25,188 bases of DNA, from positions 1-25,188 of IMG/VR virus record IMGVR_UViG_2547132281_000006. One strand, written 5' to 3'. Position numbers and translations under genes: made by a program. Under the pieces are notes generated by a model that was not told the DNA's origin, did no database searches, and was given only the letters and a program-made list of their open reading frames with translations. Each line of letters begins with the position of its first letter. Position 1 is the first letter of the stretch. This DNA is from a virus. Taxonomy: Duplodnaviria > Heunggongvirae > Uroviricota > Caudoviricetes. Shown in pieces: positions 1 through 23,770 of this stretch.

Positions 1-267
1 TTACTCTGCAGGTGAAGTCGGCCACTCAATATCAGGTGCAGTTGATGTATCAACACGATTCAACAATACCCGATATTTATTCCATGCCTCCAGCAACGAT
101 CTTTCTTCCTCCGTTGCGATTTCCAGATCTACAGCATCCTGCAGTGGCGCAATATACTCACTGAATTCCTGGATGTAGAACTGTGTGGTGACGGTCTTCC
201 AGCCATTCGGCTCCTGCTGTATCGAAGCATACCAGGCTATTTCAATATCGCTATGCTGCGGCAGCAT
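1..267 (-). pseudogene. Tail-fibre assembly (Tfa) C-terminal remnant
   Basis: 88-aa ORF; last ~50 aa ([17 protein letters not shown]...[14 protein letters not shown]) closely match the C-terminus of the intact tfa at 1047-1631; first ~35 aa unrelated. DNA 19-163 is ~85% identical to 1061-1205. Confidence 0.6.
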
Positions 268-323
268 TTAACCCCTTGTAATTCATCGCCATAATTGATT
301 TAATTCACAAATAAAACTATAAC

Positions 324-992
324 ATGGTGAAATCAATGAAAAAAAACACAGATGATGGGGCTAAAATTTACACACCACTTACCCTAAAGCTTTATGACTG
401 GTGGGTTTTGGGAGTATCAAATCGGCTTGCATGGGGATGTCCTACAAAGGAACACCTTCTTCCACACTTTCTGGAACATGTAGGTAACAACCATCTGGAT
501 ATTGGTGTTGGAACTGGGTTTTACCTTACTCACGTACCTGAGAGTAGTCTGATATCTTTAATGGATTTGAACGAAGCTAGCCTGAACGCGGCATCTACAA
601 GGGCTGGGGAATCAAAAATTAAACATAAAATTAGCCATGATGTTTTTGAACCTTATCCCGCGGCGTTACATGGTCAATTTGATTCCATTTCCATGTTTTA
701 CCTTCTTCACTGCCTGCCTGGAAATATATCTACAAAAAGCTGTGTAATACGCAATGCGGCGCAGGCCTTAACTGACGATGGAACTCTATACGGAGCCACA
801 ATTCTTGGCGATGGAGTTGTGCACAATAGCTTCGGTCAAAAACTGATGCGCATTTACAATCAGAAAGGCATCTTTTCAAACACAAAAGATTCCGAAGAAG
901 GCTTAACACATATACTCTCAGAGCATTTCGAGAATGTTAAAACCAAGGTTCAAGGTACTGTAGTAATGTTTTCCGCTTCAGGGAAAAAATAG
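324..992 (+). CDS. Class I SAM-dependent methyltransferase (YbcY-like), plus-strand moron between tfa copies
   Basis: 222-aa ORF with glycine-rich SAM-binding motif LDIGVGTGFY near residue 58; alternative start ATG at 336 preceded by GGTGA. Strand opposite to the late operon. Confidence 0.7.
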   Translation: MVKSMKKNTDDGAKIYTPLTLKLYDWWVLGVSNRLAWGCPTKEHLLPHFLEHVGNNHLDIGVGTGFYLTHVPESSLISLMDLNEASLNAASTRAGESKIKHKISHDVFEPYPAALHGQFDSISMFYLLHCLPGNISTKSCVIRNAAQALTDDGTLYGATILGDGVVHNSFGQKLMRIYNQKGIFSNTKDSEEGLTHILSEHFENVKTKVQGTVVMFSASGKK

Positions 993-999
993 CATCCAA

Positions 1000-1032
1000 C
1001 CGCAGCACGTTCTTGCTTAAGACGTGCTGCGG
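1000..1032. terminator. Stable stem-loop between convergent MTase and tfa genes (candidate bidirectional terminator)
   Basis: Perfect 11-bp stem CCGCAGCACGT / ACGTGCTGCGG with 11-nt loop; T-run follows on the minus strand (complement of GGGAAAAAATAG). Confidence 0.4.
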
Positions 1033-1046
1033 CATAATCCCAATGA

Positions 1047-1631
1047 TTACTCCCTGACAGGGTTCGTAGGCCACTCAATATCAGGTGCAGTTGATGTATC
1101 AACACGGTTCAGCAACACCCGATACTTTTTCCAGGCTTCCAGCAATGAGGTTTCTTCCTCCGTTGCAATTTCCAGATCTGCAGCATCCTGAAGCGGCGCA
1201 ATATGCTCACTGGCTACCTGCATCAGGTTGTTTTTTGTTTCTTCCGCCTCCCGGATCCGGAACAGTTTTTCTGCTTCTGCATCTTTCACCCAGGTTGTGC
1301 CGTTCCACTTCTGAAACTCCCCTTCCGGCGATAACCAGGTAACATTTTCCGGTAATAAGCCGAGTTCAGAAATAAATAACGCGTCGCCGGAAGCTACGTC
1401 ATAAACCGTTTTACCCCGATGATCTTCAACGAGATGCCACGATGCCTCATCACTGTTGAAAACAGCCACAAAGCCAGCCGGAATATCTGGCGGTGCAATA
1501 TCGGTACTGTTTGCTGGCAGACCTGTATGAGGCGGAATATATGCGTCACCTTCACCAATAAATTCATTAGTTCCGGCCAGCAGATTATAAATTTTTATGG
1601 TCCGTGCTTGTTCACTCATTCTGAATGCCAT
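1047..1631 (-). CDS. tfa: Tail fibre assembly protein (lambda Tfa family)
   Basis: 194-aa ORF with typical Tfa N-terminus ([36 protein letters not shown]) and conserved C-terminal block. Confidence 0.85.
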
Positions 1632-1641
1632 TATGCAAGCC

Positions 1642-1881
1642 TCACAATATAGTTAAATGCGATGTTTTTGACGGTGTTTTCCGCGTTACCAGCAGCGTTA
1701 ACGGTGATGGTGTGTCCATGTGAACCAATCGCACCGGCGTTTTTCCGGTAATTTTGTCCAGCATCACCTCTTCGGTGTGGAAATTCACCGTACGGCGGAA
1801 AAACAGCTCCAGAAACAGCGCACGGAATTTAACTTTTTGTTCGGTATAACCGAGTAACTGGCGGGTCGTAAACAATCCCAT
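1642..1881 (-). pseudogene. Major capsid protein (lambda E-like), N-terminal ~55 codons only; deletion junction
   Basis: [41 protein letters not shown] resembles the recalled lambda E N-terminus; similarity stops after ~55 aa and the ORF ends 11 bp before tfa. Confidence 0.7.
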
Positions 1882-1938
1882 AAATCAGTTCCTTTCATTA
1901 AGAAATCAGTCAGGCCAACGCGGTGGCCTGATAACGTG

Positions 1939-2286
1939 TTACGGCAGCGCCGCGTGACTCAGGGCACTGCCGGTAAAGGCGTTGGCCTTTTTGTGTTCAT
2001 CCACACTTTCAGGCCAGCGGATTGCCTCCGTCGCAAAGGTCCCCGACTTGTAATAGGTCAGCACCGCCTCTGTGCCTTCAAGCGGCAGTACCAGTATGCC
2101 AACCGCACTACCGGCTTTCTGTCCGTCCCAGACCACCAGTTTCCCGGTGGCCCCATCCAGCATCAGGGGTGTCAGTGCCGGTGTTGCCGAGGAAATCCCG
2201 CTGCTGCCTGTGGCGGTGTGAGCCGGATCATTACCGGCAAAAATACGTACTTCCGCACGCTGTTCAGTGATGGTTTTCGTCACCAT
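1939..2286 (-). CDS. D: Head decoration protein (lambda D-like)
   Basis: 115 aa; NDPAHTATG...TPLMLD...KLVVWDG...AVGIL...YKSGTF matches recalled lambda gpD motifs; sits between protease C and the capsid-gene remnant. Confidence 0.85.
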   Translation of the reverse strand: MVTKTITEQRAEVRIFAGNDPAHTATGSSGISSATPALTPLMLDGATGKLVVWDGQKAGSAVGILVLPLEGTEAVLTYYKSGTFATEAIRWPESVDEHKKANAFTGSALSHAALP

Positions 2287-2322
2287 ATTGTTAAAACCTC
2301 GTATTGATGTTCAGCACTGACT

Positions 2323-3828
2323 TCATGGCATGGCCATGAGCATTTTCACGTCCGCATCACCGTCTTCTGACGCCTGTGACACGCCCCCCTGGACCGCAGC
2401 CGGTGAATGGTTCGCCATGAAATGTTCAAACAGGGCGGTTGTGGATGCAGAGACCGGTTCTGCCTTACCTGATCCCGCAGCCAGCACAGCCCGGGCGCTC
2501 TCCACGGTCATTCCCGGGCAGGCAGCCAGCTGTTCAGCCTGCGCCTCAGCCCCTTTTGCCTCATCCAGGGCCATGATCTGATCACGGAGTGATGGTCCGG
2601 CATTCGCCTGCGGTGAAGCAGCCAGGATCGGGCGGGCTTTTTCCACCGTCATCTCCGGCATCGCCGCCAGCGTTACTGCCAGTTGTTCACGACCGTTCGC
2701 TTCTTCACACGCCATAATGCGATCGGCTTCACTCTGCGCGGATGCCACCGGCTGCTGCGGTGCCGCCGCGGCCAGAATCGCCCGGGCCTGTTCAACGCTC
2801 ATGCCCTGTTGCCCTGCCAGCATCGTGGCAAGCTGTTCACGTCCTTTCGCTTCCTGGCATGTCAGGATCCCCATCACTCGCTGGTTCTCCTGCACGGCGG
2901 CTTCCGTTGCAGTTAATTGCGGCATAGTGCCTCCTCTGACATTACTGTTCAGCGCCGTGGCCATCACACTGATGGCATCCGACGCATTGATTAATTCATC
3001 CGCCAGCCCGGCCTCAATGCCGGACTGACCTTCAAAAACGGCGGCCTCTGTTCCCGTGACCGCATCCACAGACAACCCGGTATACATCGCCACTTTTTCG
3101 GCAAACATCCGGTGCGCCGCATCAATCCGCTGCTGCATATCCTGGCGAACCTCTGCCGGCAACGCTTCAAACTGATTGCCATCCACCTTGTGCGCCCCGG
3201 CATAAATCAGCGTGATATCCACACCGGCCTGCGCCAGATGACCGGCATAGCTGACATGGCTCATCATCACGCCAATGGAGCCGATACGGGATGTCTGGGT
3301 AACCAGCCGTCGGGAGCAGGCCGACGCCAGCAGCATGGCTGCAGAACAGGCCGTGTCATTGCACAGTGCCCAGACCGGCTTCTGCTGACGGAGGCGGTAA
3401 ATCATGTCAGCGCAGTCAAACGCGCCGGCGGCCTGCCCGCCCGGACTGTCAATGTCCAGCAGTATGCCCCGCACCTGGCTATCTGCCATTGCCTGCTGAA
3501 GACAGGCGACAATGCCGTCATAGCCAGTCATTCCGGAAAATGGCCGCATCCCCCCCAGCCGGTGCACCAGCGTGCCGCTCACCGGCAGTACCGCAATACC
3601 GTTCACCACCCGGTAAACACGGGCCGGTCGTTTACCTCCGGCCATGTACTCGTCCGTTTCAGCCAGCATTCCGGGAGCATCAAGCTGTACCTGCTGTTGT
3701 GGTACCGAAAGACTTGCTGCCCCCATCTCGCGCCCGAGCGCGCAAAAGAAAACCCGCGCATAGGCGGGCTCCAGAAGCAGCGGTTCATTGAATGCTGCGG
3801 CAATAATGTGTGAAAGATTACGTCTCAC
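2323..3828 (-). CDS. C: Prohead protease / scaffold (lambda C/Nu3-like, S49 peptidase family) with tandem C-terminal repeats
   Basis: 501 aa; N-terminal S49/ClpP-like region (ILLDIDSPGG...); C-terminal part has three ~33-aa tandem repeats (EAKGREQLA...GMSVEQARAILAA). Confidence 0.85.
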   Translation of the reverse strand: MRRNLSHIIAAAFNEPLLLEPAYARVFFCALGREMGAASLSVPQQQVQLDAPGMLAETDEYMAGGKRPARVYRVVNGIAVLPVSGTLVHRLGGMRPFSGMTGYDGIVACLQQAMADSQVRGILLDIDSPGGQAAGAFDCADMIYRLRQQKPVWALCNDTACSAAMLLASACSRRLVTQTSRIGSIGVMMSHVSYAGHLAQAGVDITLIYAGAHKVDGNQFEALPAEVRQDMQQRIDAAHRMFAEKVAMYTGLSVDAVTGTEAAVFEGQSGIEAGLADELINASDAISVMATALNSNVRGGTMPQLTATEAAVQENQRVMGILTCQEAKGREQLATMLAGQQGMSVEQARAILAAAAPQQPVASAQSEADRIMACEEANGREQLAVTLAAMPEMTVEKARPILAASPQANAGPSLRDQIMALDEAKGAEAQAEQLAACPGMTVESARAVLAAGSGKAEPVSASTTALFEHFMANHSPAAVQGGVSQASEDGDADVKMLMAMP

Positions 3829-5410
3829 GTGGTGTTGTCTCCTCTTCCGGCCTGCGACTCTCCGCTATCTGCTGCTGATACGCCTGCGCTATCCACACCG
3901 GACGTGAGAGTCCGGCTTTTTCCCGCTCTGCAGATTCCCTGACCTGCTGGCGGAAAATGTCCTGATAATCCTCGCCCATCAGCGCCAGCTCTTTCTCATA
4001 CGTGCTCAGTCCGGCCTCAATGCGCATCACTGATTCCTGAACCTCCTTGAGCCCGTCAATGGCCATTCTTCCGGCTCCAATCCACTCAGCCCGTGACCAG
4101 GCTGATCGCGCCTGATAAAAATCAAAACGTGCCCGTGGCGGACGAATAATCCCCCGAAGAAGTGCCTCTTCCAGCCAGCAGGAAAACATCTGCGTGGCCA
4201 GCCGGGACGCAATAAATTTTCGCCGCCCCATAAAATAGCGCCACGACTCATTGGCGGAGGCGCGGGCACTTGAATAACTGACCTTCGAGTAATCACGGGA
4301 CAACTGTTCGTAGGAAACGCCAAGACCGGCGGCGATATACCGCAGCAGCGCCTGTTCAAGCGCCGAAAATCCATTGTCTGAATCCTGCGCGGTCTGAAGT
4401 TTCAGATCATCACCGGGGAAAAGGTGCGGAATTTTGACACCGCCCAGCGTCACGTGATTCGTGTCATACCAGGTGGAGAACTTATCCAGAATATTAATAA
4501 GCGGATTATCCTTCTGCCCCTGCGGCGCACCGGCGATATATTCAAAGGCCTTTTCGGTATCAAGTTCACTTTCAATCGTCGCTGCATACATCGCCTTCAC
4601 TATGGCCGACTGAAGCTGTGTTGCCTGCAGGGAATCGAGCATCTTCAGCCGTTCCATGACGCTGTAAAACTGATTAGCCCCACGGGTCTGCCCGTCCTCC
4701 ACCGGCTCGAAAATATGCAGCATGGCCGGACGCCCGGTGGGAAGTTCACGCGGGATCCGTTCCCATCGTCCACTACCAGAGAACGGAAAATCGTCCTCAC
4801 AGATATGGTACGCGACGGCACGGCCATATCGATCGACCTCCACACCGGCCCGCAGAAAACGGTTCCCCATACCGTGTCCAGGCGTGTCCACCCGTTTCGG
4901 ACTCACGGCTTTAAAACGCGTACGGAATAACTGCGTGGTTTCCGTATCCCAGACCGGCTGCACAAAGATTTCGCCGTTAAACGCATGAACGCCCACACCT
5001 TCACGGATAAATTCCGTGAACGTGCGTTTTACTTCCACGTCGATCTCACCAAACATCCCTTCGGCGTATTCCGACCAGGCCGCCTCCACCTCATCGACAA
5101 AGCTTTTTGCTGCGGTCTCCCGCATCCCCAGCCAGCGCCAGTTCGGACGGTAGCTGATCAGAAACATATGCCCGACAATGTGATCCTTATGCAGAGCCAC
5201 CGCATTAGCCGCTATTCCGTTATTGCGCACCAGATCATCTGCCCGGGCATTCCCCAGACGCAACGCGGGTAGCAGGGCCGCATCGGCACTCTGCGCCGGT
5301 GGCAACCACTCCGCCATTTGCCCGCCAAATCCTGCGCCGCCCCCGTTGTAGCTGAGACTCTCACGAAGCGGAACGCCGTTCACATCAATCAGGACAGGCG
5401 TTCGTTTCAT
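3818..5410 (-). CDS. B: Portal protein (lambda B-like)
   Basis: 530 aa; co-linear with recalled lambda gpB (YNGGGAGFGGQ, GNARADDLVRNNG, FEPVEDGQTRGAN, LRYIAAGLGVSYEQLSR). Confidence 0.9.
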   Translation of the reverse strand: MKRTPVLIDVNGVPLRESLSYNGGGAGFGGQMAEWLPPAQSADAALLPALRLGNARADDLVRNNGIAANAVALHKDHIVGHMFLISYRPNWRWLGMRETAAKSFVDEVEAAWSEYAEGMFGEIDVEVKRTFTEFIREGVGVHAFNGEIFVQPVWDTETTQLFRTRFKAVSPKRVDTPGHGMGNRFLRAGVEVDRYGRAVAYHICEDDFPFSGSGRWERIPRELPTGRPAMLHIFEPVEDGQTRGANQFYSVMERLKMLDSLQATQLQSAIVKAMYAATIESELDTEKAFEYIAGAPQGQKDNPLINILDKFSTWYDTNHVTLGGVKIPHLFPGDDLKLQTAQDSDNGFSALEQALLRYIAAGLGVSYEQLSRDYSKVSYSSARASANESWRYFMGRRKFIASRLATQMFSCWLEEALLRGIIRPPRARFDFYQARSAWSRAEWIGAGRMAIDGLKEVQESVMRIEAGLSTYEKELALMGEDYQDIFRQQVRESAEREKAGLSRPVWIAQAYQQQIAESRRPEEETTPRET

Positions 5411-11727: not shown

Positions 11728-13584
11728 TTATGATGATGCCGGTGCATTTATCTCCAGCACCAGACTTTCTATCTCAACGCCATACGCTGCATTTTTGGTA
11801 ATATCCGTCAGCGTCAGCGCATTCAGCCCCAGTGTCAGACTGTCTTTTATGACCTGGAATGCCGGGCCAGCCACTCCATTCAGTTTCGGAGTAACCGTGG
11901 CACTGCCGGCGGTGAACACCAGCTCCAGCGTCTGCCAGTCGTTACTGTAATTCCCGAACTCGCCCAACTTTGTGTTTCCTGCTTTCTTGTGATGCATCAG
12001 ATTCAGTTTGCCGTCTGTGGTCTGGGTGAAGAACGACATCAGGAACGGGTTACCAGTCCCGGTCATCGCCACGACGTCAGGTAACGCTACATCGGTATAC
12101 AGATAAATTCCCAGACCGAACTGGTTGTTGGTCAGTGCGCCTGACAGTCGAAACTTACAGCTCAGTCTGCCACCCCGTGTCAGCAGGGAGACTGCGTCAT
12201 CCACCGGATGCATCAGGGACCAGGTTTTATTGCTCTGCTTGGTAACCTTAAACACACCATCTTCCAGCGCAACACTGCCGCCGGTGATGGTCCAGCCCTG
12301 CGCAGCAGCCTCTCCGGCTGTCGGCAGCAGGGAGACTGTACGAACGGATGTGTCACCATCAGACGGCCCCGATGGAGTGTCGCCGCCGGGCGAGGGTTTG
12401 ATTTCCGGTGCCTTACCACTAATGAAGGCTAAGGTGCGACCGGCTACGTTCAGAATAGCAGTTGCCATACGATCGGGAATAATGCCACGACGCGCCCATG
12501 AGCTGAAATGCGTCGGGCGATTTGATGATACCCAATTACCATTACTACGGGATTGCGCGCCGTAATAACCTGCATCAGCAATATCCGGGTCTTCTGCCGG
12601 TAAGTTGGTGGGCGTGTTGTTGCCGTTACCGTCGGTCATGAACGGCACAAAGAAAACGTTGTCGCTCTCCCTGTTTTTGTACGCGCCGTAGACGGAGTCA
12701 TACTGTGTGCCGTATGTGTTTTTCCAGTAATACGTCGTGTCGCCACAAATCCACGGTACAACTGCAGCACTGCCGCCATGGCACTGCGCGTTAAATCCGG
12801 AAAGGTCAGTACGGAACTGCTTCAGCATGGCCGTGAACAGGTCCGGTTGCTGTGCGTAGGTGGCAGCGCTCATGTCAAATTCGCCCTGCATCCAGCACAC
12901 CGCCAGCAACACATTTTTCGGGTTCCTCTGTAATGCCGCTTTGGTGCGTGCGATCAGGTCCTGATATAACGGTTTACCCACACCCCAGCGTGCCGAATCC
13001 TGGCTGGCCCCCGTGTCCGCACTGAATGTCCCCTCCGCGCCCTGGGTGAATGCCGAACCACCACGACAGCATGGTACCAGCAGGATCCCCGCGTTATTCG
13101 GGATATACGGAAGCAGTTTTTTGGCAATATGTAAGCCCTGGCCGACACAGCCGTACTGCCCTTTGCTCAGGTCTGCCTTCGGATGATTCAGTGCGCTCAT
13201 ATCCTGAACATCATGCAGGCAGTGGTCTGCCGGAATGATGTCGTTAAATGCGCATGCTTTACCACCGGGAGTCACTGTGTTGCGACGGGCCAGTTGCTTA
13301 ATGCGTGGGTGGGGCGCATCGTAAGAATCCGGAAGCGGAAGCCCTTCACCGTAAGCCATGGCATTGGATTGCCCGGCCAGTACGATGACGTAGTACCACT
13401 CCGGCTCAGTTGCACCACTGACGACCACATCACCTTCTGCTGCAATCGCCTGCATCAGGGTATAAGGGGTTATGGCCACCGGACTACCAAACGGCTGCCA
13501 GCCCTCTTTCAGTTTATGTGTCAGCTTTTCCGCAAGATCTGACGGCGACGCCGCCCTGACAACATCATAGTGTTTAAATGCCAT
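11728..13584 (-). CDS. Prophage sialate O-acetylesterase (NanS-p type: N-terminal DUF1737-like domain plus SASA/SGNH esterase)
   Basis: Start at ATG 13584 (MAFKHYDVV, GGTGGA SD); LAGQSNAMAYGEG esterase motif; ~620 aa; sits between the stx-equivalent locus and the holin as in Stx phages. Confidence 0.8.
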   Translation of the reverse strand: MAFKHYDVVRAASPSDLAEKLTHKLKEGWQPFGSPVAITPYTLMQAIAAEGDVVVSGATEPEWYYVIVLAGQSNAMAYGEGLPLPDSYDAPHPRIKQLARRNTVTPGGKACAFNDIIPADHCLHDVQDMSALNHPKADLSKGQYGCVGQGLHIAKKLLPYIPNNAGILLVPCCRGGSAFTQGAEGTFSADTGASQDSARWGVGKPLYQDLIARTKAALQRNPKNVLLAVCWMQGEFDMSAATYAQQPDLFTAMLKQFRTDLSGFNAQCHGGSAAVVPWICGDTTYYWKNTYGTQYDSVYGAYKNRESDNVFFVPFMTDGNGNNTPTNLPAEDPDIADAGYYGAQSRSNGNWVSSNRPTHFSSWARRGIIPDRMATAILNVAGRTLAFISGKAPEIKPSPGGDTPSGPSDGDTSVRTVSLLPTAGEAAAQGWTITGGSVALEDGVFKVTKQSNKTWSLMHPVDDAVSLLTRGGRLSCKFRLSGALTNNQFGLGIYLYTDVALPDVVAMTGTGNPFLMSFFTQTTDGKLNLMHHKKAGNTKLGEFGNYSNDWQTLELVFTAGSATVTPKLNGVAGPAFQVIKDSLTLGLNALTLTDITKNAAYGVEIESLVLEINAPASS

Positions 13585-13844
13585 GGTTCTTTCCACCATC
13601 TGAAAAATGATTCTTTAAAATACCTGACATGTAATACAGAAAAAACACAAAACCATACCTTAAATAAAAACCTCATCATCAAGCAGATATGCATGGATAA
13701 ACTACAAGACGAGATATAAACCACCCTGCATTTAAATAAACAATAAACAACATCAGAAAAATAATTCTGCTCTATGGTTTACAATCAAAAATATCATTTA
13801 TACTTTTCAGAACATCACCAGCAAGGCATAAACAAGGAAACTAA

Positions 13845-14770: not shown

Positions 14771-15820
14771 TCAAACGATTAAATCCTGAACTTCCCTGAC
14801 TGTCTGCTCAAAACGTCCGGTCTCCAGTTCAACGCCAATCGCACGACGCCCGAGCGCCAGTGCAGCTTTTACCGTTGAACCTGAGCCCATAAAAAAATCT
14901 GCAACCAGGTCTCCCGGACGACTGCTTGCGCTGATTATCTGCTGCAGCATTTCTGCCGGTTTTTCGCACGGATGTTTCCCGGGATAGAACTGCACCGGTT
15001 TATGTGTCCACACATCCGTGTACGGCACCTGCGCCGTCACACCAAAATACCGCCGCAGATGCTTATATTCACTCTGCAGCTCCACATACTGCCGGTTCAG
15101 TGACGTATACGTATCCACCAGCTGGTGGTGGGGCTTTTCCAGTTCACCGCGCTGATGTTTCTCTTCTGCCACCCGGGCAAACAGCGACTGTAATTTCAGA
15201 TAATCGCTTTCGTTCGGTAGCTGCCACTGACTGGCACTGAACCAGTGCGACACCATGTTTTTCTTTCCTGTGGCATCTGCAATCTGTTTTGCCGTTATCC
15301 CCAGGGCCGCGCGCGCATCACGAAAGTAAGAAATCAGCGGGGCCATCACATGCTGTTTCAGTGCACTGCCCTTCGCCGCATACCCGGCATCTTTCGGACG
15401 ATACGGCCCCTGATAATGTTCCGCGAACAGAATGCGCTCTGTGGCGGGGAAATACGCCCGCAGGCTTTCCTTGTTGCATCCGTTCCAGCGTCCGGACGGC
15501 TTCGCCCAGATAATATGGTTCAGCACACTGAAGCGTTCACGCATCATGATTTCGATATCAGATGCCAGGCGATGACCACAGAACAGGTAAAGACTTCCGG
15601 CAGGTTTCAGCACCCGCCAGAACTGCGCCAGACACTGGTCCAGCCACTTCAGGTAATCATCGTCGCCCTTCCACTGGTTATCCCAGCCCTCAGGCTTCAC
15701 TTTAAAGTACGGCGGGTCCGTAACTATCAGGTCAACAGAATTTTCGGGTAACGACCGGATAAATTCCAGGCAGTCGGCGTTGATTAACTCACAACTGGAT
15801 ATTTTTACAGTATTAAGCAT
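14771..15820 (-). CDS. Orphan DNA methyltransferase, beta-class (N6-adenine or N4-cytosine)
   Basis: 349 aa; DPPY motif near the N-terminus (LIVTDPPYF) and FxGxG SAM motif near the C-terminus (DFFMGSGST); no adjacent restriction endonuclease candidate. Confidence 0.8.
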   Translation of the reverse strand: MLNTVKISSCELINADCLEFIRSLPENSVDLIVTDPPYFKVKPEGWDNQWKGDDDYLKWLDQCLAQFWRVLKPAGSLYLFCGHRLASDIEIMMRERFSVLNHIIWAKPSGRWNGCNKESLRAYFPATERILFAEHYQGPYRPKDAGYAAKGSALKQHVMAPLISYFRDARAALGITAKQIADATGKKNMVSHWFSASQWQLPNESDYLKLQSLFARVAEEKHQRGELEKPHHQLVDTYTSLNRQYVELQSEYKHLRRYFGVTAQVPYTDVWTHKPVQFYPGKHPCEKPAEMLQQIISASSRPGDLVADFFMGSGSTVKAALALGRRAIGVELETGRFEQTVREVQDLIV

Positions 15821-21298: not shown

Positions 21299-23770
21299 AT
21301 GAGTAAAGTCTTTATTTGCGCCGCCATTCCGGACGAACAGGCAATAAAGGAAGAAGGTGCCGTCGCTGTAGCCACTGCCATTGAAGCCGGTGATGAACGT
21401 CGCGCCCGCGCAAAATTTCACTGGCAATTCCTGGAACATTATCCGGCTGCTCAGGACTGCGCTTATAAATTTCTTGTCTGCGAGGATAAACCCGGTATAC
21501 CCCGCCCTGCCCTCGATTCCTGGGATGCTGAATATATGCAGGAAAACCGCTGGGATGAGGAATCCGCTTCCTTTATTCCGGTCGAATCAGAATCCGATCC
21601 GATGAACGTCAATTTTGACAAGCTGTCCCTTGAAGTACAGAACGCGGTCCTGGTTAAGTTCGACACATGTGAAAACATCACCGTTGATATGGTTATTAGC
21701 GCACAGGAATTGTTGCAGGAAGACATGGCAACATTCGACGGACATATCGTTGAAGCGTTGATGAAAATGCCAGAAGTTAACGCCATGTATCCGGAGCTTA
21801 AGCTGCATGCCATCGGGTGGGTTAAGCATAAATGTAAGCCTGGTGCCAAATGGCCCGAAATTCAGGCAGAGATGCGCATCTGGAAAAAACGTCGCGAAGG
21901 TGAACGCAAGGAAACCGGAAAATACACGTCTGTTGTTGATCTCGCCCGCGCCAGAACCAATCAACAGCACAGTGAAAATTCAACAGGAAAAATCAGCCCG
22001 GTCATTGCTGCCATTCATCGCGAATACAAGCAGACATGGAAAACACTGGATGACGAACTGGCCTACGCTCTCTGGCCTGGTGATGTGGATGCCGGAAACA
22101 TTGACGGCAGCATCCATCGCTGGGCAAAAAATGAAGTTATCGACAACGACCGCGAAGACTGGAAGCGTATCTCGGCATCAATGCGCAAACAGCCTGATGC
22201 CCTTCGCTACGACCGCCAGACTATTTTTGGCCTTGTCCGTGAACGTCCGATCGACATTCACAAAGACCCTGTGGCACTGAACAAATACATTACTGAATAC
22301 CTGACTACAAAGGGCGTGTTTGAAGATGAAGGAAGAAATCAGAGCGCAACTGATACTCTCTCGTCGCCAGTACCAGAAACTGATGCAGTGGAAACGGCAA
22401 TTCCGGACAACGAAAAAACCGAATGCAAAGTGGAAGTCGAACCATCTGTAGAGCGTGAGGGGCCGTTCTACTTCCTCTTCACCGACAAGGATGGCGAAAA
22501 ATACGGTCGCGCAAACAAACTTTCTGGTCTGGATAAGGCGCTGGCTGCCGGGGCTACTGAAATCACGAAAGAAGAATATTTCGCCCGCAAAAACAGTACA
22601 TACTCAGGTTCACAACAAAATACTGGTGTATCTGACACGATCGCACAACCAGAGCCGGTAAAAGTTACCGCTGACGAAGTAAACAAAATTATGCAGGCAG
22701 CCAATATCAGCCAGCCTGACGCCAATAAGTTGCTTGCTGTATCACGTGGTGAATTTGTTGCAGGGATTAGCGACCCGAATGATCCGAAATGGGTGAAGGG
22801 GATTGAAACCCGCGATTCAGTGAATCAGAACCAGCAAGAAACGGAAAAGAACGGCCAGAAAGCGGAACAAAACAGCCCAAATGCGTTACAAAACGAGCCA
22901 GAAACGAAACAACCTGAACCAGTAGCGCAACAGGAACCGGAAAAAGTCTGCACCGCCTGCGGTCAGACCGGCGGCGGCAACTGCCCTGATTGTGGCGCGG
23001 TGATGGGCGACGCAACATACCAGGAAACATTCGATGAAGAGTATCAGGTTGAAGTTCAGGAAGATGATCCGGAGAAAATGGAAGGCGCTGAACATCCACA
23101 CAAGGAGAATGCTGGCAGCGCTCAGGACCACGCCAGCGATAGTGAAACTGGCGAGACGGCAGATCCCTTAATTACGGTGAACGGTCATCACGTTATCACA
23201 TCCACCAGCAGGACGTGTGACCATCTAATGATCGACCTTGAAACCATGGGAAAAAATCCTGATGCCCCGATCATCTCAATAGGTGCAATATTTTTCGATC
23301 CGCAAACCGGAGATATGGGACCGGAATTTAGTAAGACTATCGATCTGGAAACTGCTGGCGGAGTCATTGATCGGGACACCATTAAATGGTGGCTTAAGCA
23401 ATCACGCGAAGCGCAATCTGCCATTATGACCGATGAAATCCCGTTAGATGATGCACTGTTACAATTGCGGGAATTTATCGACGAAAACTCCGGTGAATTT
23501 TTTGTTCAGGTCTGGGGAAATGGAGCCAACTTCGACAACACGATTTTGCGCCGTTCATACGAACGGCAGGGGATCCCCTGCCCGTGGCGTTACTACAACG
23601 ATCGCGATGTACGCACAATCGTTGGGCTGGGGAAAGCCATAGACTTCGATGCCAGAACGGCTATTCCATTCGAAGGTGAGCGCCATAATGCACTTGATGA
23701 CGCCCGTTACCAGGCAAAATACGTTTCAGCTATCTGGCAAAAACTGATCCCGAGTCAGGCTGATTTTTAA
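21299..23770 (+). CDS. Large early protein with C-terminal DnaQ-like DEDDh 3'-5' exonuclease domain
   Basis: 823 aa; C-terminal motifs MIDLETMG (Exo I), VWGNGANFDNTIL (Exo II), HNALDDARYQAKY (Exo III); CxxC-N7-CxxC (CTACGQTGGGNCPDCG); acidic Q/E/P-rich linker. Confidence 0.75.
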   Translation: MSKVFICAAIPDEQAIKEEGAVAVATAIEAGDERRARAKFHWQFLEHYPAAQDCAYKFLVCEDKPGIPRPALDSWDAEYMQENRWDEESASFIPVESESDPMNVNFDKLSLEVQNAVLVKFDTCENITVDMVISAQELLQEDMATFDGHIVEALMKMPEVNAMYPELKLHAIGWVKHKCKPGAKWPEIQAEMRIWKKRREGERKETGKYTSVVDLARARTNQQHSENSTGKISPVIAAIHREYKQTWKTLDDELAYALWPGDVDAGNIDGSIHRWAKNEVIDNDREDWKRISASMRKQPDALRYDRQTIFGLVRERPIDIHKDPVALNKYITEYLTTKGVFEDEGRNQSATDTLSSPVPETDAVETAIPDNEKTECKVEVEPSVEREGPFYFLFTDKDGEKYGRANKLSGLDKALAAGATEITKEEYFARKNSTYSGSQQNTGVSDTIAQPEPVKVTADEVNKIMQAANISQPDANKLLAVSRGEFVAGISDPNDPKWVKGIETRDSVNQNQQETEKNGQKAEQNSPNALQNEPETKQPEPVAQQEPEKVCTACGQTGGGNCPDCGAVMGDATYQETFDEEYQVEVQEDDPEKMEGAEHPHKENAGSAQDHASDSETGETADPLITVNGHHVITSTSRTCDHLMIDLETMGKNPDAPIISIGAIFFDPQTGDMGPEFSKTIDLETAGGVIDRDTIKWWLKQSREAQSAIMTDEIPLDDALLQLREFIDENSGEFFVQVWGNGANFDNTILRRSYERQGIPCPWRYYNDRDVRTIVGLGKAIDFDARTAIPFEGERHNALDDARYQAKYVSAIWQKLIPSQADF

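Follow-up and report, generated by a model that had tools for sequence, protein, structure and literature searches.

Introduction

The closest described relative of the locus studied here is the tfaD-ybcY-tfaX module of prophage DLP12 in Escherichia coli K-12, in which a methyltransferase gene stands between two tail fibre assembly (tfa) sequences. The locus is already known: it is annotated in K-12, and the Prokaryotic Genome Annotation Pipeline (PGAP) has annotated it in thousands of genomes, labelling the methyltransferase of the relatives "class I SAM-dependent methyltransferase" (SAM, S-adenosylmethionine). Literature searches on ybcY, tfaX/tfaD and DLP12 with methyltransferase returned incidental mentions only, of which a genomic SELEX table of RpoD promoters and a remark on the ompT context were informative. 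Here we analysed the tfa end of a 25,188-nt stretch of DNA from a Caudoviricetes virus (IMG/VR record IMGVR_UViG_2547132281_000006, positions 1 to 25,188), hereafter called the window. A first-pass annotation of its letters had proposed that a methyltransferase gene is bracketed there by direct repeats of the tfa 3' end, that this cassette was acquired or shuffled by recombination between tfa copies, and that it could be lost in the same way. We find that the region is probably the cargo end of a defective lambdoid prophage and carries an intact form of the DLP12 module, with a 38-bp repeat core that appears to have served as a recombination joint.

The comparison with DLP12 that the first-pass annotation had recommended revealed the same gene order. 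Positions 21-1485 of the window aligned by blastn with tfaX-ybcY-tfaD of K-12 (L006, 7122-5660) in one collinear piece at 96.8% identity, and the two loci share their genes, orientation and ybcY promoter hexamers. They differ in the state of the genes and in the outer junctions. In K-12, ybcY is a pseudogene through a 2-nt deletion and frameshift, whereas the methyltransferase gene is intact here; the open reading frame (ORF) of the upstream tfa copy, tfa', has 61 aa in K-12 and 88 aa here. DLP12 (tfaD-ybcY-tfaX-appY-ompT) continues into appY-ompT, whereas the window has a potB-type end, as judged from positions 1-19 and from the relatives L001 and L002, and tfa is joined upstream to a terminase fragment in DLP12 but to a capsid-gene fragment here.

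Results

Direct repeats of the tfa 3' end share a perfect core

A repeat search returned one long direct-repeat family, formed by positions 17-174 and 1066-1223 (158 nt, 87% identical, spacing 1049). In an ungapped comparison at offset 1049, identity was 87.3% over 17-174 and 89.0% over 19-163, and it was at random level beyond the repeat (31% for 175-267 and 37% for 1-16). The direct repeats that had been reported at 19-163 and 1061-1205 are real, but the second interval was about 7 nt off, the true partner being 1068-1212; the reported identity of ~85% was right in pointing to high similarity, but the value is 87-89%. The 38-bp perfect core stood as described: the string GGCCACTCAATATCAGGTGCAGTTGATGTATCAACACG is found at 20-57 and 1069-1106 and nowhere else in the 25,188-nt window, and by our own arithmetic such a repeat has a chance expectation of ~1e-14. 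Both copies match the Pfam family Caudo_TAP (PF02413), in agreement with their assignment to the tfa C-terminal coding region. Since the repeated segment codes for the conserved C-terminal Tfa domain, it is common to otherwise different tfa genes. The sole terminator-like site called in 1-1700 lies at 1216-1238 on the plus strand (ACCTGCATCAGGT followed by TGTTTTTTGT), which places it inside tfa but antisense to that gene, where repeat copy 2 has its inner edge.

Methyltransferase-free alleles have their joint inside the core

We constructed the predicted excision product from the potB spacer, copy 1 to position 110 and copy 2 from position 1160, and compared it with complete E. coli genomes, some of which matched in a single piece that spans exactly 882 nt. 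When a solo allele served as the query, at least 22 of the best 60 records represented a solo tfa without the methyltransferase gene, including that of O104:H4. The solo alleles adjoin the same potB spacer as the cassette-bearing alleles; the potB-type end itself was found in 363 genomes. All eight solo alleles examined carried the copy-1 allele at 11/11 diagnostic sites in 1-19, and from position 58 they were mainly of copy-2 type, two of them at every site and six with one to three exceptions within the repeat. In 8/8 alleles the joint thus lies inside the 38-bp core. The downstream spacer of the solo alleles showed at most 5 mismatches to cassette-bearing genomes in 7/8; the spacer of L032, in which a 1-nt indel shifts the register, was left out of this comparison.

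The allele switch inside the core in every solo allele examined lends support to the suggestion that the cassette was acquired or shuffled by recombination between tfa copies. As read from these alignments, homologous recombination at the core appears to have gained or lost the cassette, and the structure of the alleles fits deletion and installation equally. The single-nucleotide polymorphisms at 58-174 travel with the methyltransferase gene elsewhere and those at 1-19 are potB-specific, from which we infer installation through the core. Loss by the same recombination, the other half of the suggestion, was borne out in part: methyltransferase-free alleles with a core joint exist, but a gain explains them equally. 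Cassette loss through the core is mechanistically expected.

The module is widespread and its boundaries fall at the core

The unique core of the module, positions 175-1046, was present in 3797 of 5426 complete E. coli genomes (~70%) at a coverage of at least 80%, with 1-4 copies per genome, all at least 95% identical. The module also occurs in the viable temperate lambdoid phages 2G7b, ev243, PhiR26_1, PhiR29_1/2, PhiR30_1, PhiR49_1, PhiR68_2, Kati and Turner. Where a prophage is better preserved, the genes run J-lom-stf-tfa-(methyltransferase)-tfa', and 232 bp separate tfa' from potB. Across eight loci compared, differing sites numbered 0-2/93 in the part of the upstream ORF that precedes its tfa sequence (geneX', described below), 0-1/56 in the spacer and 0-7/669 in the methyltransferase gene, and the hairpin behind that gene was near-invariant.

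At the distal edge or in the interior of the core of tfa', homology to the window breaks at position 20 in phage 204576, whose record CP025907.1 has 100% identity for 20-1240 only, and at position 43 in the type represented by PhiR26_1, 2G7b and Turner. At the proximal core edge it breaks at 1069 in PhiR68_2, Turner and Kati. The tfa' copy of phage 204576 has a C-terminus of copy-2 type (...PANPVRE); behind it come another hairpin, which differs slightly from the first, and the integrase region (L005, 4929-5000). PhiR68_2 (L023, 4400-5600), Turner (L024, 5400-6700) and Kati have ynaE and a Pin-type (PinQ/PinR) invertase between the methyltransferase hairpin and tfa, and the two tfa 3' copies of PhiR68_2 and Turner are ~2.8 kb apart.

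Phage Ayreon (L016, 3253-3600) has kept only the equivalent of window positions 957-1178, with a stub of the tfa 3' end, the hairpin and the final 36 nt of the methyltransferase gene; stf runs into the tfa stub on one side, and a 32-codon geneX-like stub follows on the other. E. coli CT30, with a DLP12 remnant of the type found in uropathogenic E. coli (L037), has an intact 218-aa methyltransferase 243 nt from ompT and no tfa' copy; only a decayed tfa-int adjoins argU (tRNA-Arg), so that the methyltransferase outlives every phage function. These two loci indicate that the cassette also decays by non-homologous deletion.

Such decay has a place in a different account, in which the repeats are the scar of one ancient fusion without an ongoing role and the solo potB prophages are ancestral; the cassette would then spread as a passenger of larger lambdoid exchanges and be removed by unrelated deletions. 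The diversity of the solo alleles suggests age, as L021, L022 and L033-35 carry extra substitutions, and the Ayreon remnant and L037, which lacks tfa', document non-homologous decay. However, in several independent contexts cassette-borne sequence meets locus-specific sequence in the core or at its edge (at 20 in 204576, at 43 in the PhiR26_1 type and at 1069 in PhiR68_2 and Turner), and the same core holds the switch of all eight solo alleles. Moreover, a perfect match of 38 bp is longer than the minimal processing segment of RecA and Red recombination, so that deletion is mechanistically expected. We consider this account unlikely. The joints in several contexts, together with the eight solo alleles, instead suggest that the core has been used repeatedly as a crossover site.

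The upstream repeat copy lies in a chimeric ORF

Only residues 31-87 of the 88-aa upstream ORF matched Caudo_TAP, covering profile positions 75-131 of 131, so that the two-domain Tfa architecture is incomplete and its variable N-terminal fibre-binding half is missing. The ORF matched phrog_2341 end to end (E 5e-61), and its match to phrog_3893, a 79-aa family, was confined to residues 3-37. With the N-terminus as query, tblastn found a 79-aa ORF in Klebsiella phage Kp4882-3, the remnant in phage Ayreon and, weakly, HK225 gp28; we call this gene geneX. The Kp4882-3 ORF sits upstream of a possible UmuD-like ORF, which was read from the sequence and has no Pfam match.

In Citrobacter freundii (L025 and L027), an intact 80-aa geneX is divergent from a 90%-identical methyltransferase gene across a spacer of ~59 nt that is near-identical to that of the window. 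Both tfa and the hairpin are absent from this locus, and the arrangement is unfused and ancestral-looking. Its surroundings (L025, 3300-5000, and L027) comprise putative UmuD-like remnants, geneX, the methyltransferase gene, dinI and a CdiI-type immunity gene. Between the Citrobacter and the Klebsiella phage geneX, the ratio of non-synonymous to synonymous polymorphism (pN/pS) was 0.35, and only the sense frame lacked internal stops, which marks geneX as a real gene. PGAP places a frameshifted "DinI family" pseudogene over part of it in a relative (L036, 3495-3574, corresponding to window ~169-248, plus strand); we rejected this candidate, as the minus-strand geneX frame alone is open and has the pN/pS of 0.35.

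Window positions 267-181 matched codons 1-29 of geneX from L027 at 76/87 nt, and positions up to 163 matched tfa at 135/159 nt. The switch from geneX to tfa falls at ~163-167, in a CAGG.A microhomology common to both parents. The 88-aa ORF is accordingly an in-frame illegitimate fusion, geneX(1-34)::Tfa(~141-194), and the interval 19-163 of the first-pass annotation coincides exactly with its tfa-derived part. That annotation had named, as a finding that would speak against its proposal, an upstream repeat belonging to a different intact gene rather than to a tfa remnant. The repeat does sit in an intact 88-aa ORF, but its repeated part is genuine tfa 3' sequence, and because the ORF is a fusion with that sequence the upstream copy is still a tfa remnant. 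In relatives, PGAP marks the tfa' copy as an N-terminally truncated pseudogene. The 3' end of the fusion ORF varies between loci, giving 61 aa in K-12 and PhiR68_2, 88 aa here, 89 aa in phage 204576 and 101 aa with an unrelated tail in PhiR26_1; the ORF is split in 2G7b and absent in L037. This variation argues for a remnant and not for a selected protein.

We weighed whether the 88-aa ORF could nevertheless be a functional small protein, a truncated chaperone or a decoy that acts through the Tfa C-terminal domain against fibre assembly of superinfecting phages. North and colleagues reportedly proposed in 2019 that the conserved Tfa C-terminal domain mediates multimerisation. The ORF is intact, with a start codon and an AAGGGG Shine-Dalgarno-like sequence taken from geneX, its 88-aa members form a PHROG of their own (phrog_2341), and TfaX is annotated as a protein in K-12. 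On the other hand, its C-terminus is not conserved across loci, the N-terminal fibre-binding half of Caudo_TAP is missing, PGAP treats it as a pseudogene, and the -10 element predicted for tfaX (PMC3946193) overlaps its ATG. A function of this kind appears quite improbable.

The repeats could also be two copies of a small RNA gene, Rfam IS009, with the RNA as the conserved and duplicated entity. The model RF02111 matched 1288..1090 on the minus strand with 225.7 bits (E 1e-56; gathering threshold 117) and 244..41 on the minus strand with 112.5 bits, and a 2026 preprint lists IS009 among phage-associated RNAs. However, the matches lie wholly inside the tfa reading frame on the coding strand, and the Caudo_TAP C-terminal domain accounts for their conservation. 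The copy-1 match is below threshold, its geneX-derived 5' third aligns poorly with several non-canonical pairs, and the promoter and terminator scan found no independent promoter or terminator for the RNA. What the family models appears to be the coding sequence of the conserved tfa C-terminus, and duplication of an RNA gene is very unlikely.

Extremely unlikely, finally, is an origin of the tfa copies from a tail-fibre inversion segment like those of Mu (G), P1 (C) or e14 (P). The Pin-type serine invertase and ynaE between the methyltransferase gene and tfa of PhiR68_2, Turner and Kati would fit such an origin, as would the invertase that adjoins the geneX homologue of HK225. However, Gin, Cin and Pin inversion segments hold convergent tfa genes, whereas the copies here are direct and not inverted, and on this orientation we ruled the origin out. 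In addition, positions 1-5400 contain no invertase, and the non-tfa part of the upstream ORF comes from geneX and not from a tail-fibre gene.

The methyltransferase gene is intact and resembles host genes

As had been noted, an intact 222-aa class I SAM-dependent methyltransferase gene lies between the repeats on the strand opposite to tfa. Its reading frame is open, and Methyltransf_12 (37.5 bits, threshold 30), Methyltransf_23, Methyltransf_25 and Methyltransf_11 all exceeded their Pfam gathering thresholds. The 222-aa protein belongs to phrog_2132, whose 218-aa profile begins at residue 5. Motif I (D59-I-G61-V-G63-T-G65) and the acidic D81 after beta-2 were invariant in 31 homologues. The start codon is probably ATG336, giving 218 aa, because the -10 element abuts ATG324, M5 is invariant, most homologues have 218 aa, and a GGTGA stands 5 nt upstream of ATG336.

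The divergent spacer holds the hexamers TTGATT and TATAAC at 295-300 and 318-323. Genomic SELEX (systematic evolution of ligands by exponential enrichment) by Shimada et al. identified this TTGATT-17-TATAAC as the constitutive RpoD promoter of K-12 ybcY, with an H-NS site (PMC3946193). In our promoter scan, which placed two sigma-70-like sites in the spacer, the region overall had no excess of promoter-like sites over shuffled sequence. The GC content was 41.1% in the methyltransferase gene and 26.8% in the spacer, against 47.7% in tfa and 58.3% in the head genes.

Homologues in Enterobacterales are 56-68% identical. Those of Salmonella, Enterobacter and Yersinia (56-65%) are stand-alone chromosomal genes without phage neighbours, which suggests that the phage gene is a captured host-type gene. 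The wider family comprises 1326 clusters of 50% identity at E<=1e-3 and probably extends to fungi. No conserved operon was found around the homologues across Salmonella, Enterobacter, Yersinia, a probable fungal genome and metagenomic contigs.

The fold points to small-molecule and lipid methyltransferases

The AlphaFold model of the methyltransferase has a class I Rossmann-like alpha/beta fold with a predicted local distance difference test score (pLDDT) of 90.7. The fold and active-site analysis that had been suggested for predicting the substrate class pointed to small-molecule and lipid methyltransferases. The top Foldseek ranks were held by phosphatidylethanolamine N-methyltransferase, which was the best match, juvenile-hormone acid methyltransferase (JHAMT) and phosphoethanolamine methyltransferases. 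The best sequence relatives in the Protein Data Bank (PDB) were JHAMT and UbiG O-methyltransferases, with single-sequence and profile E values of 1e-3 to 6.5e-6; the profile-to-PDB search reached JHAMT only (E 6.5e-6). The NCBIfam models CpaM, RquA and PmtA gave E values of 0.0015-0.01, far short of their cut-offs, and PADLOC returned nothing meaningful for the methyltransferase. Like PmtA (8ys9), JHAMT (7ec0), UbiG (4kdr) and MM_2633 (3dtn), the protein is a single domain of ~200-250 aa with a seven-stranded Rossmann-like fold, in which motif I reads DxGxGxG and beta-2 is followed by an acidic residue. However, its identity to these proteins is only 15-21%, with profile E values no better than 6.5e-6, and because no single structural neighbour stands out, no substrate can be transferred from them.

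The first-pass annotation had judged that the enzyme is not an obvious DNA methyltransferase, and our data agree with this view. The 222-aa protein matched none of the DNA-methyltransferase families PF01555, PF02384, PF00145 and PF02086, its sequence contains no (D/N/S)PP(Y/F/W) or PCQ motif, its single 218-222-aa domain leaves no target-recognition domain, and DNA methyltransferases were not among the top fold matches. The prophage has a bona fide N6_N4 DNA methyltransferase in another gene, at 15820..14771 on the minus strand (PF01555, E 2e-44). Taken as a full alternative, action on a macromolecule, be it DNA (in anti-restriction or epigenetic control), rRNA or tRNA, or a protein such as the tail fibre, appears decidedly unlikely. 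It is opposed by the missing DNA-methyltransferase families, DPPY/NPPY and PCQ-type motifs and target-recognition domain, by relatives of the JHAMT, UbiG and phosphatidylethanolamine N-methyltransferase kind in sequence and fold, by the stand-alone chromosomal homologues in bacteria and, probably, fungi, and by the N6_N4 DNA methyltransferase that the prophage already has.

Our assessment leans towards a methyltransferase of small molecules or lipids that the lysogen expresses from the gene's own promoter. By substrate class, RNA or protein has a lesser but appreciable likelihood, and DNA is very improbable. A more specific proposal, that the YbcY-family enzyme, common in E. coli and still intact in fully decayed remnants beside ompT, is a selected lysogenic-conversion function methylating an envelope lipid, a small metabolite or a toxin, seems improbable as it stands; examples would be PmtA-like phosphatidylethanolamine N-methylation or a heterocycle-detoxifying methylation. 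If true, such an enzyme would alter the membrane properties or the chemical resistance of the lysogen.

Hairpin and prophage context

The features of the module are collected in Table 1. The strong hairpin that had been noticed behind the methyltransferase gene begins 8 nt past its stop codon, with folding energies of -23.9 kcal/mol (z -5.6) for the plus-strand RNA and -28.5 kcal/mol (z -4.3) for the minus-strand RNA. Homology to phages PhiR68_2, Turner and Kati stops exactly at its end, position 1032, and the hairpin behind tfa' in phage 204576 is a variant of it. As the Citrobacter methyltransferase gene is followed by dinI instead, the hairpin appears to belong to the tfa (late) unit. It probably forms the 3' end or the terminator of the late transcript of tfa, and the methyltransferase gene shares this structure. 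In relatives, PGAP annotates a 45-aa "hypothetical protein" (WP_001309429.1) that corresponds to window 937-1074 on the minus strand. This call, which is probably spurious, overlaps the methyltransferase 3' end in antisense and extends over the hairpin as far as the 3' end of tfa.

Table 1 Features of the methyltransferase module and its flanks in the window
Feature	Position	Strand	Details
Chimeric ORF, TfaX-like	1..267	-	88 aa; geneX ~34 codons (267..~164) and last ~54 tfa codons (~163..1)
Direct repeat copy 1 (tfa 3' end)	17..174		Core 20-57; repeat search and ungapped comparison
AT-rich divergent spacer	268..323		56 nt; promoter-like TTAACC-16-CATAAT 268-295 and TTGATT-17-TATAAC 295-323
Class I SAM-dependent methyltransferase gene, intact K-12 ybcY orthologue	324..992	+	222 aa from ATG324
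Stem-loop between convergent methyltransferase gene and tfa	1000..1032		14 bp, interrupted; fold energies and z-scores
Tail fibre assembly gene tfa, intact, lambda Tfa type	1047..1631	-	194 aa; Caudo_TAP, phrog_105
Direct repeat copy 2, within intact tfa	1066..1223		Core 1069-1106; repeat search and ungapped comparison
stf 3' end	1632..1737	-	Last ~35 codons; E. coli stf-tfa matches stop at 1737/1740

The 194-aa Tfa is full length, covering Caudo_TAP profile positions 1-130 (E 4.8e-44), and the 3' end of its gene is ~90% identical in nucleotide sequence to lambda tfa. It sits downstream of the stf 3' remnant, which is joined at 1732-1737 to the N-terminal fragment of a lambda E-type major capsid gene (1881..~1738); the capsid matches begin at 1732, with a weak Phage_cap_E match over residues 5-49. 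This capsid::stf junction was found in one piece in no complete RefSeq E. coli genome. Beyond the capsid fragment follow gpD, gpC, portal, terminase and lysis genes, Q and RusA, with a lambda-type integrase at the far end. The gene content suggests that the window is a defective lambdoid prophage that has lost all tail genes and the rest of the capsid gene, the loss of the tail genes following from the capsid fragment being fused directly to the stf end. Elsewhere, the prophage encodes a 623-aa accessory protein with DUF1737, SASA (sialate O-acetylesterase-type) and DUF6645 domains (11728-13599, minus strand) and an 823-aa accessory protein with a C-terminal Rv2179c-like 3'-5' exoribonuclease domain (21299-23770, plus strand).

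Discussion

We propose the following history for the module, as the most probable account of the findings. A host-derived YbcY-family methyltransferase gene would have been placed just downstream of tfa, the last late gene, so that it converges on tfa. The hairpin separates the two genes, and transcription of the methyltransferase gene would start from an AT-rich sigma-70 promoter of its own, to which H-NS binds in K-12. The gene may have arrived as one half of the divergent pair of geneX and methyltransferase that is still intact in Citrobacter. An illegitimate join at the level of microhomology, between about codon 34 of geneX and about codon 141 of a second tfa copy, would have made the 88-aa chimera, and the direct repeat of the tfa 3' end would be a side effect of this join. 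The 38-bp core would since have acted as a homologous-recombination joint, through which the cassette would have been placed beside the potB attR spacer, the alpha/beta-hydrolase-ompT-int region or appY-ompT, and through which it may also be gained or lost, leaving a single hybrid tfa. In the lysogen, the enzyme would most likely methylate a small molecule or a lipid and not DNA.

Several points weigh against this account. The solo alleles may represent the ancestral state of the potB prophage. The evidence for the promoter was obtained in vitro and comes from K-12, where ybcY is a pseudogene. Among the E. coli and phage copies, the methyltransferase gene has 0-4 differing sites, mostly non-synonymous; the ratio of non-synonymous to synonymous substitution rates (dN/dS) is uninformative on 0-4 substitutions, and purifying selection is thus not shown within the lineage, in which K-12 has a frameshifted copy. 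The hairpin at 1000-1032 is not a canonical terminator, having no adjacent U-tract on either strand and no call in the terminator scan.

The findings suggest no unusual mechanism. The locus is a worked example of a cargo gene bracketed by a duplicated piece of a structural gene, to which the present analysis adds the origin of the upstream copy by fusion, support from population data for the core as a joint, and the prevalence of the module. If the methyltransferase has a phenotype, it would be relevant to very many E. coli strains.

The term moron, which the first-pass annotation had applied to the methyltransferase gene, fits its deviant GC content, its position on the opposite strand, its promoter-like site and its presence/absence polymorphism at one site. 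The 1049-bp cassette is present in some examples of the potB-spacer-tfa-stf arrangement and absent from others, and the base composition of the gene, as given above, differs from that of tfa and the head genes. We class the module as a conventional moron that occupies the cargo slot of lambdoid prophages between the tail-fibre genes and attR. The moron concept, with lambda bor and lom as examples, reportedly goes back to Juhala, Hendrix and colleagues in 2000. Like these genes, the methyltransferase gene is an extra gene dispensable for the lytic cycle, with deviant composition, a flanking stem-loop and a putative promoter of its own, present or absent between otherwise syntenic phages. Unlike bor and lom, it lies antisense to the late operon, probably entered in a two-gene divergent unit and is flanked by a duplicated piece of the neighbouring gene, and no lysogenic-conversion phenotype is known for it. 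Exchangeable effector loci downstream of tail-fibre genes were reportedly described by Tobe and colleagues in 2006 in lambdoid prophages of enterohaemorrhagic E. coli (EHEC). The module shares with them a cargo slot between the tail-fibre genes and the prophage end and the shuffling of its content between prophages. In contrast to the EHEC loci, its product is not a type III effector but a cytoplasmic-type methyltransferase with housekeeping-like chromosomal homologues, and, with a presence in 70% of complete E. coli genomes, it extends beyond pathogens.

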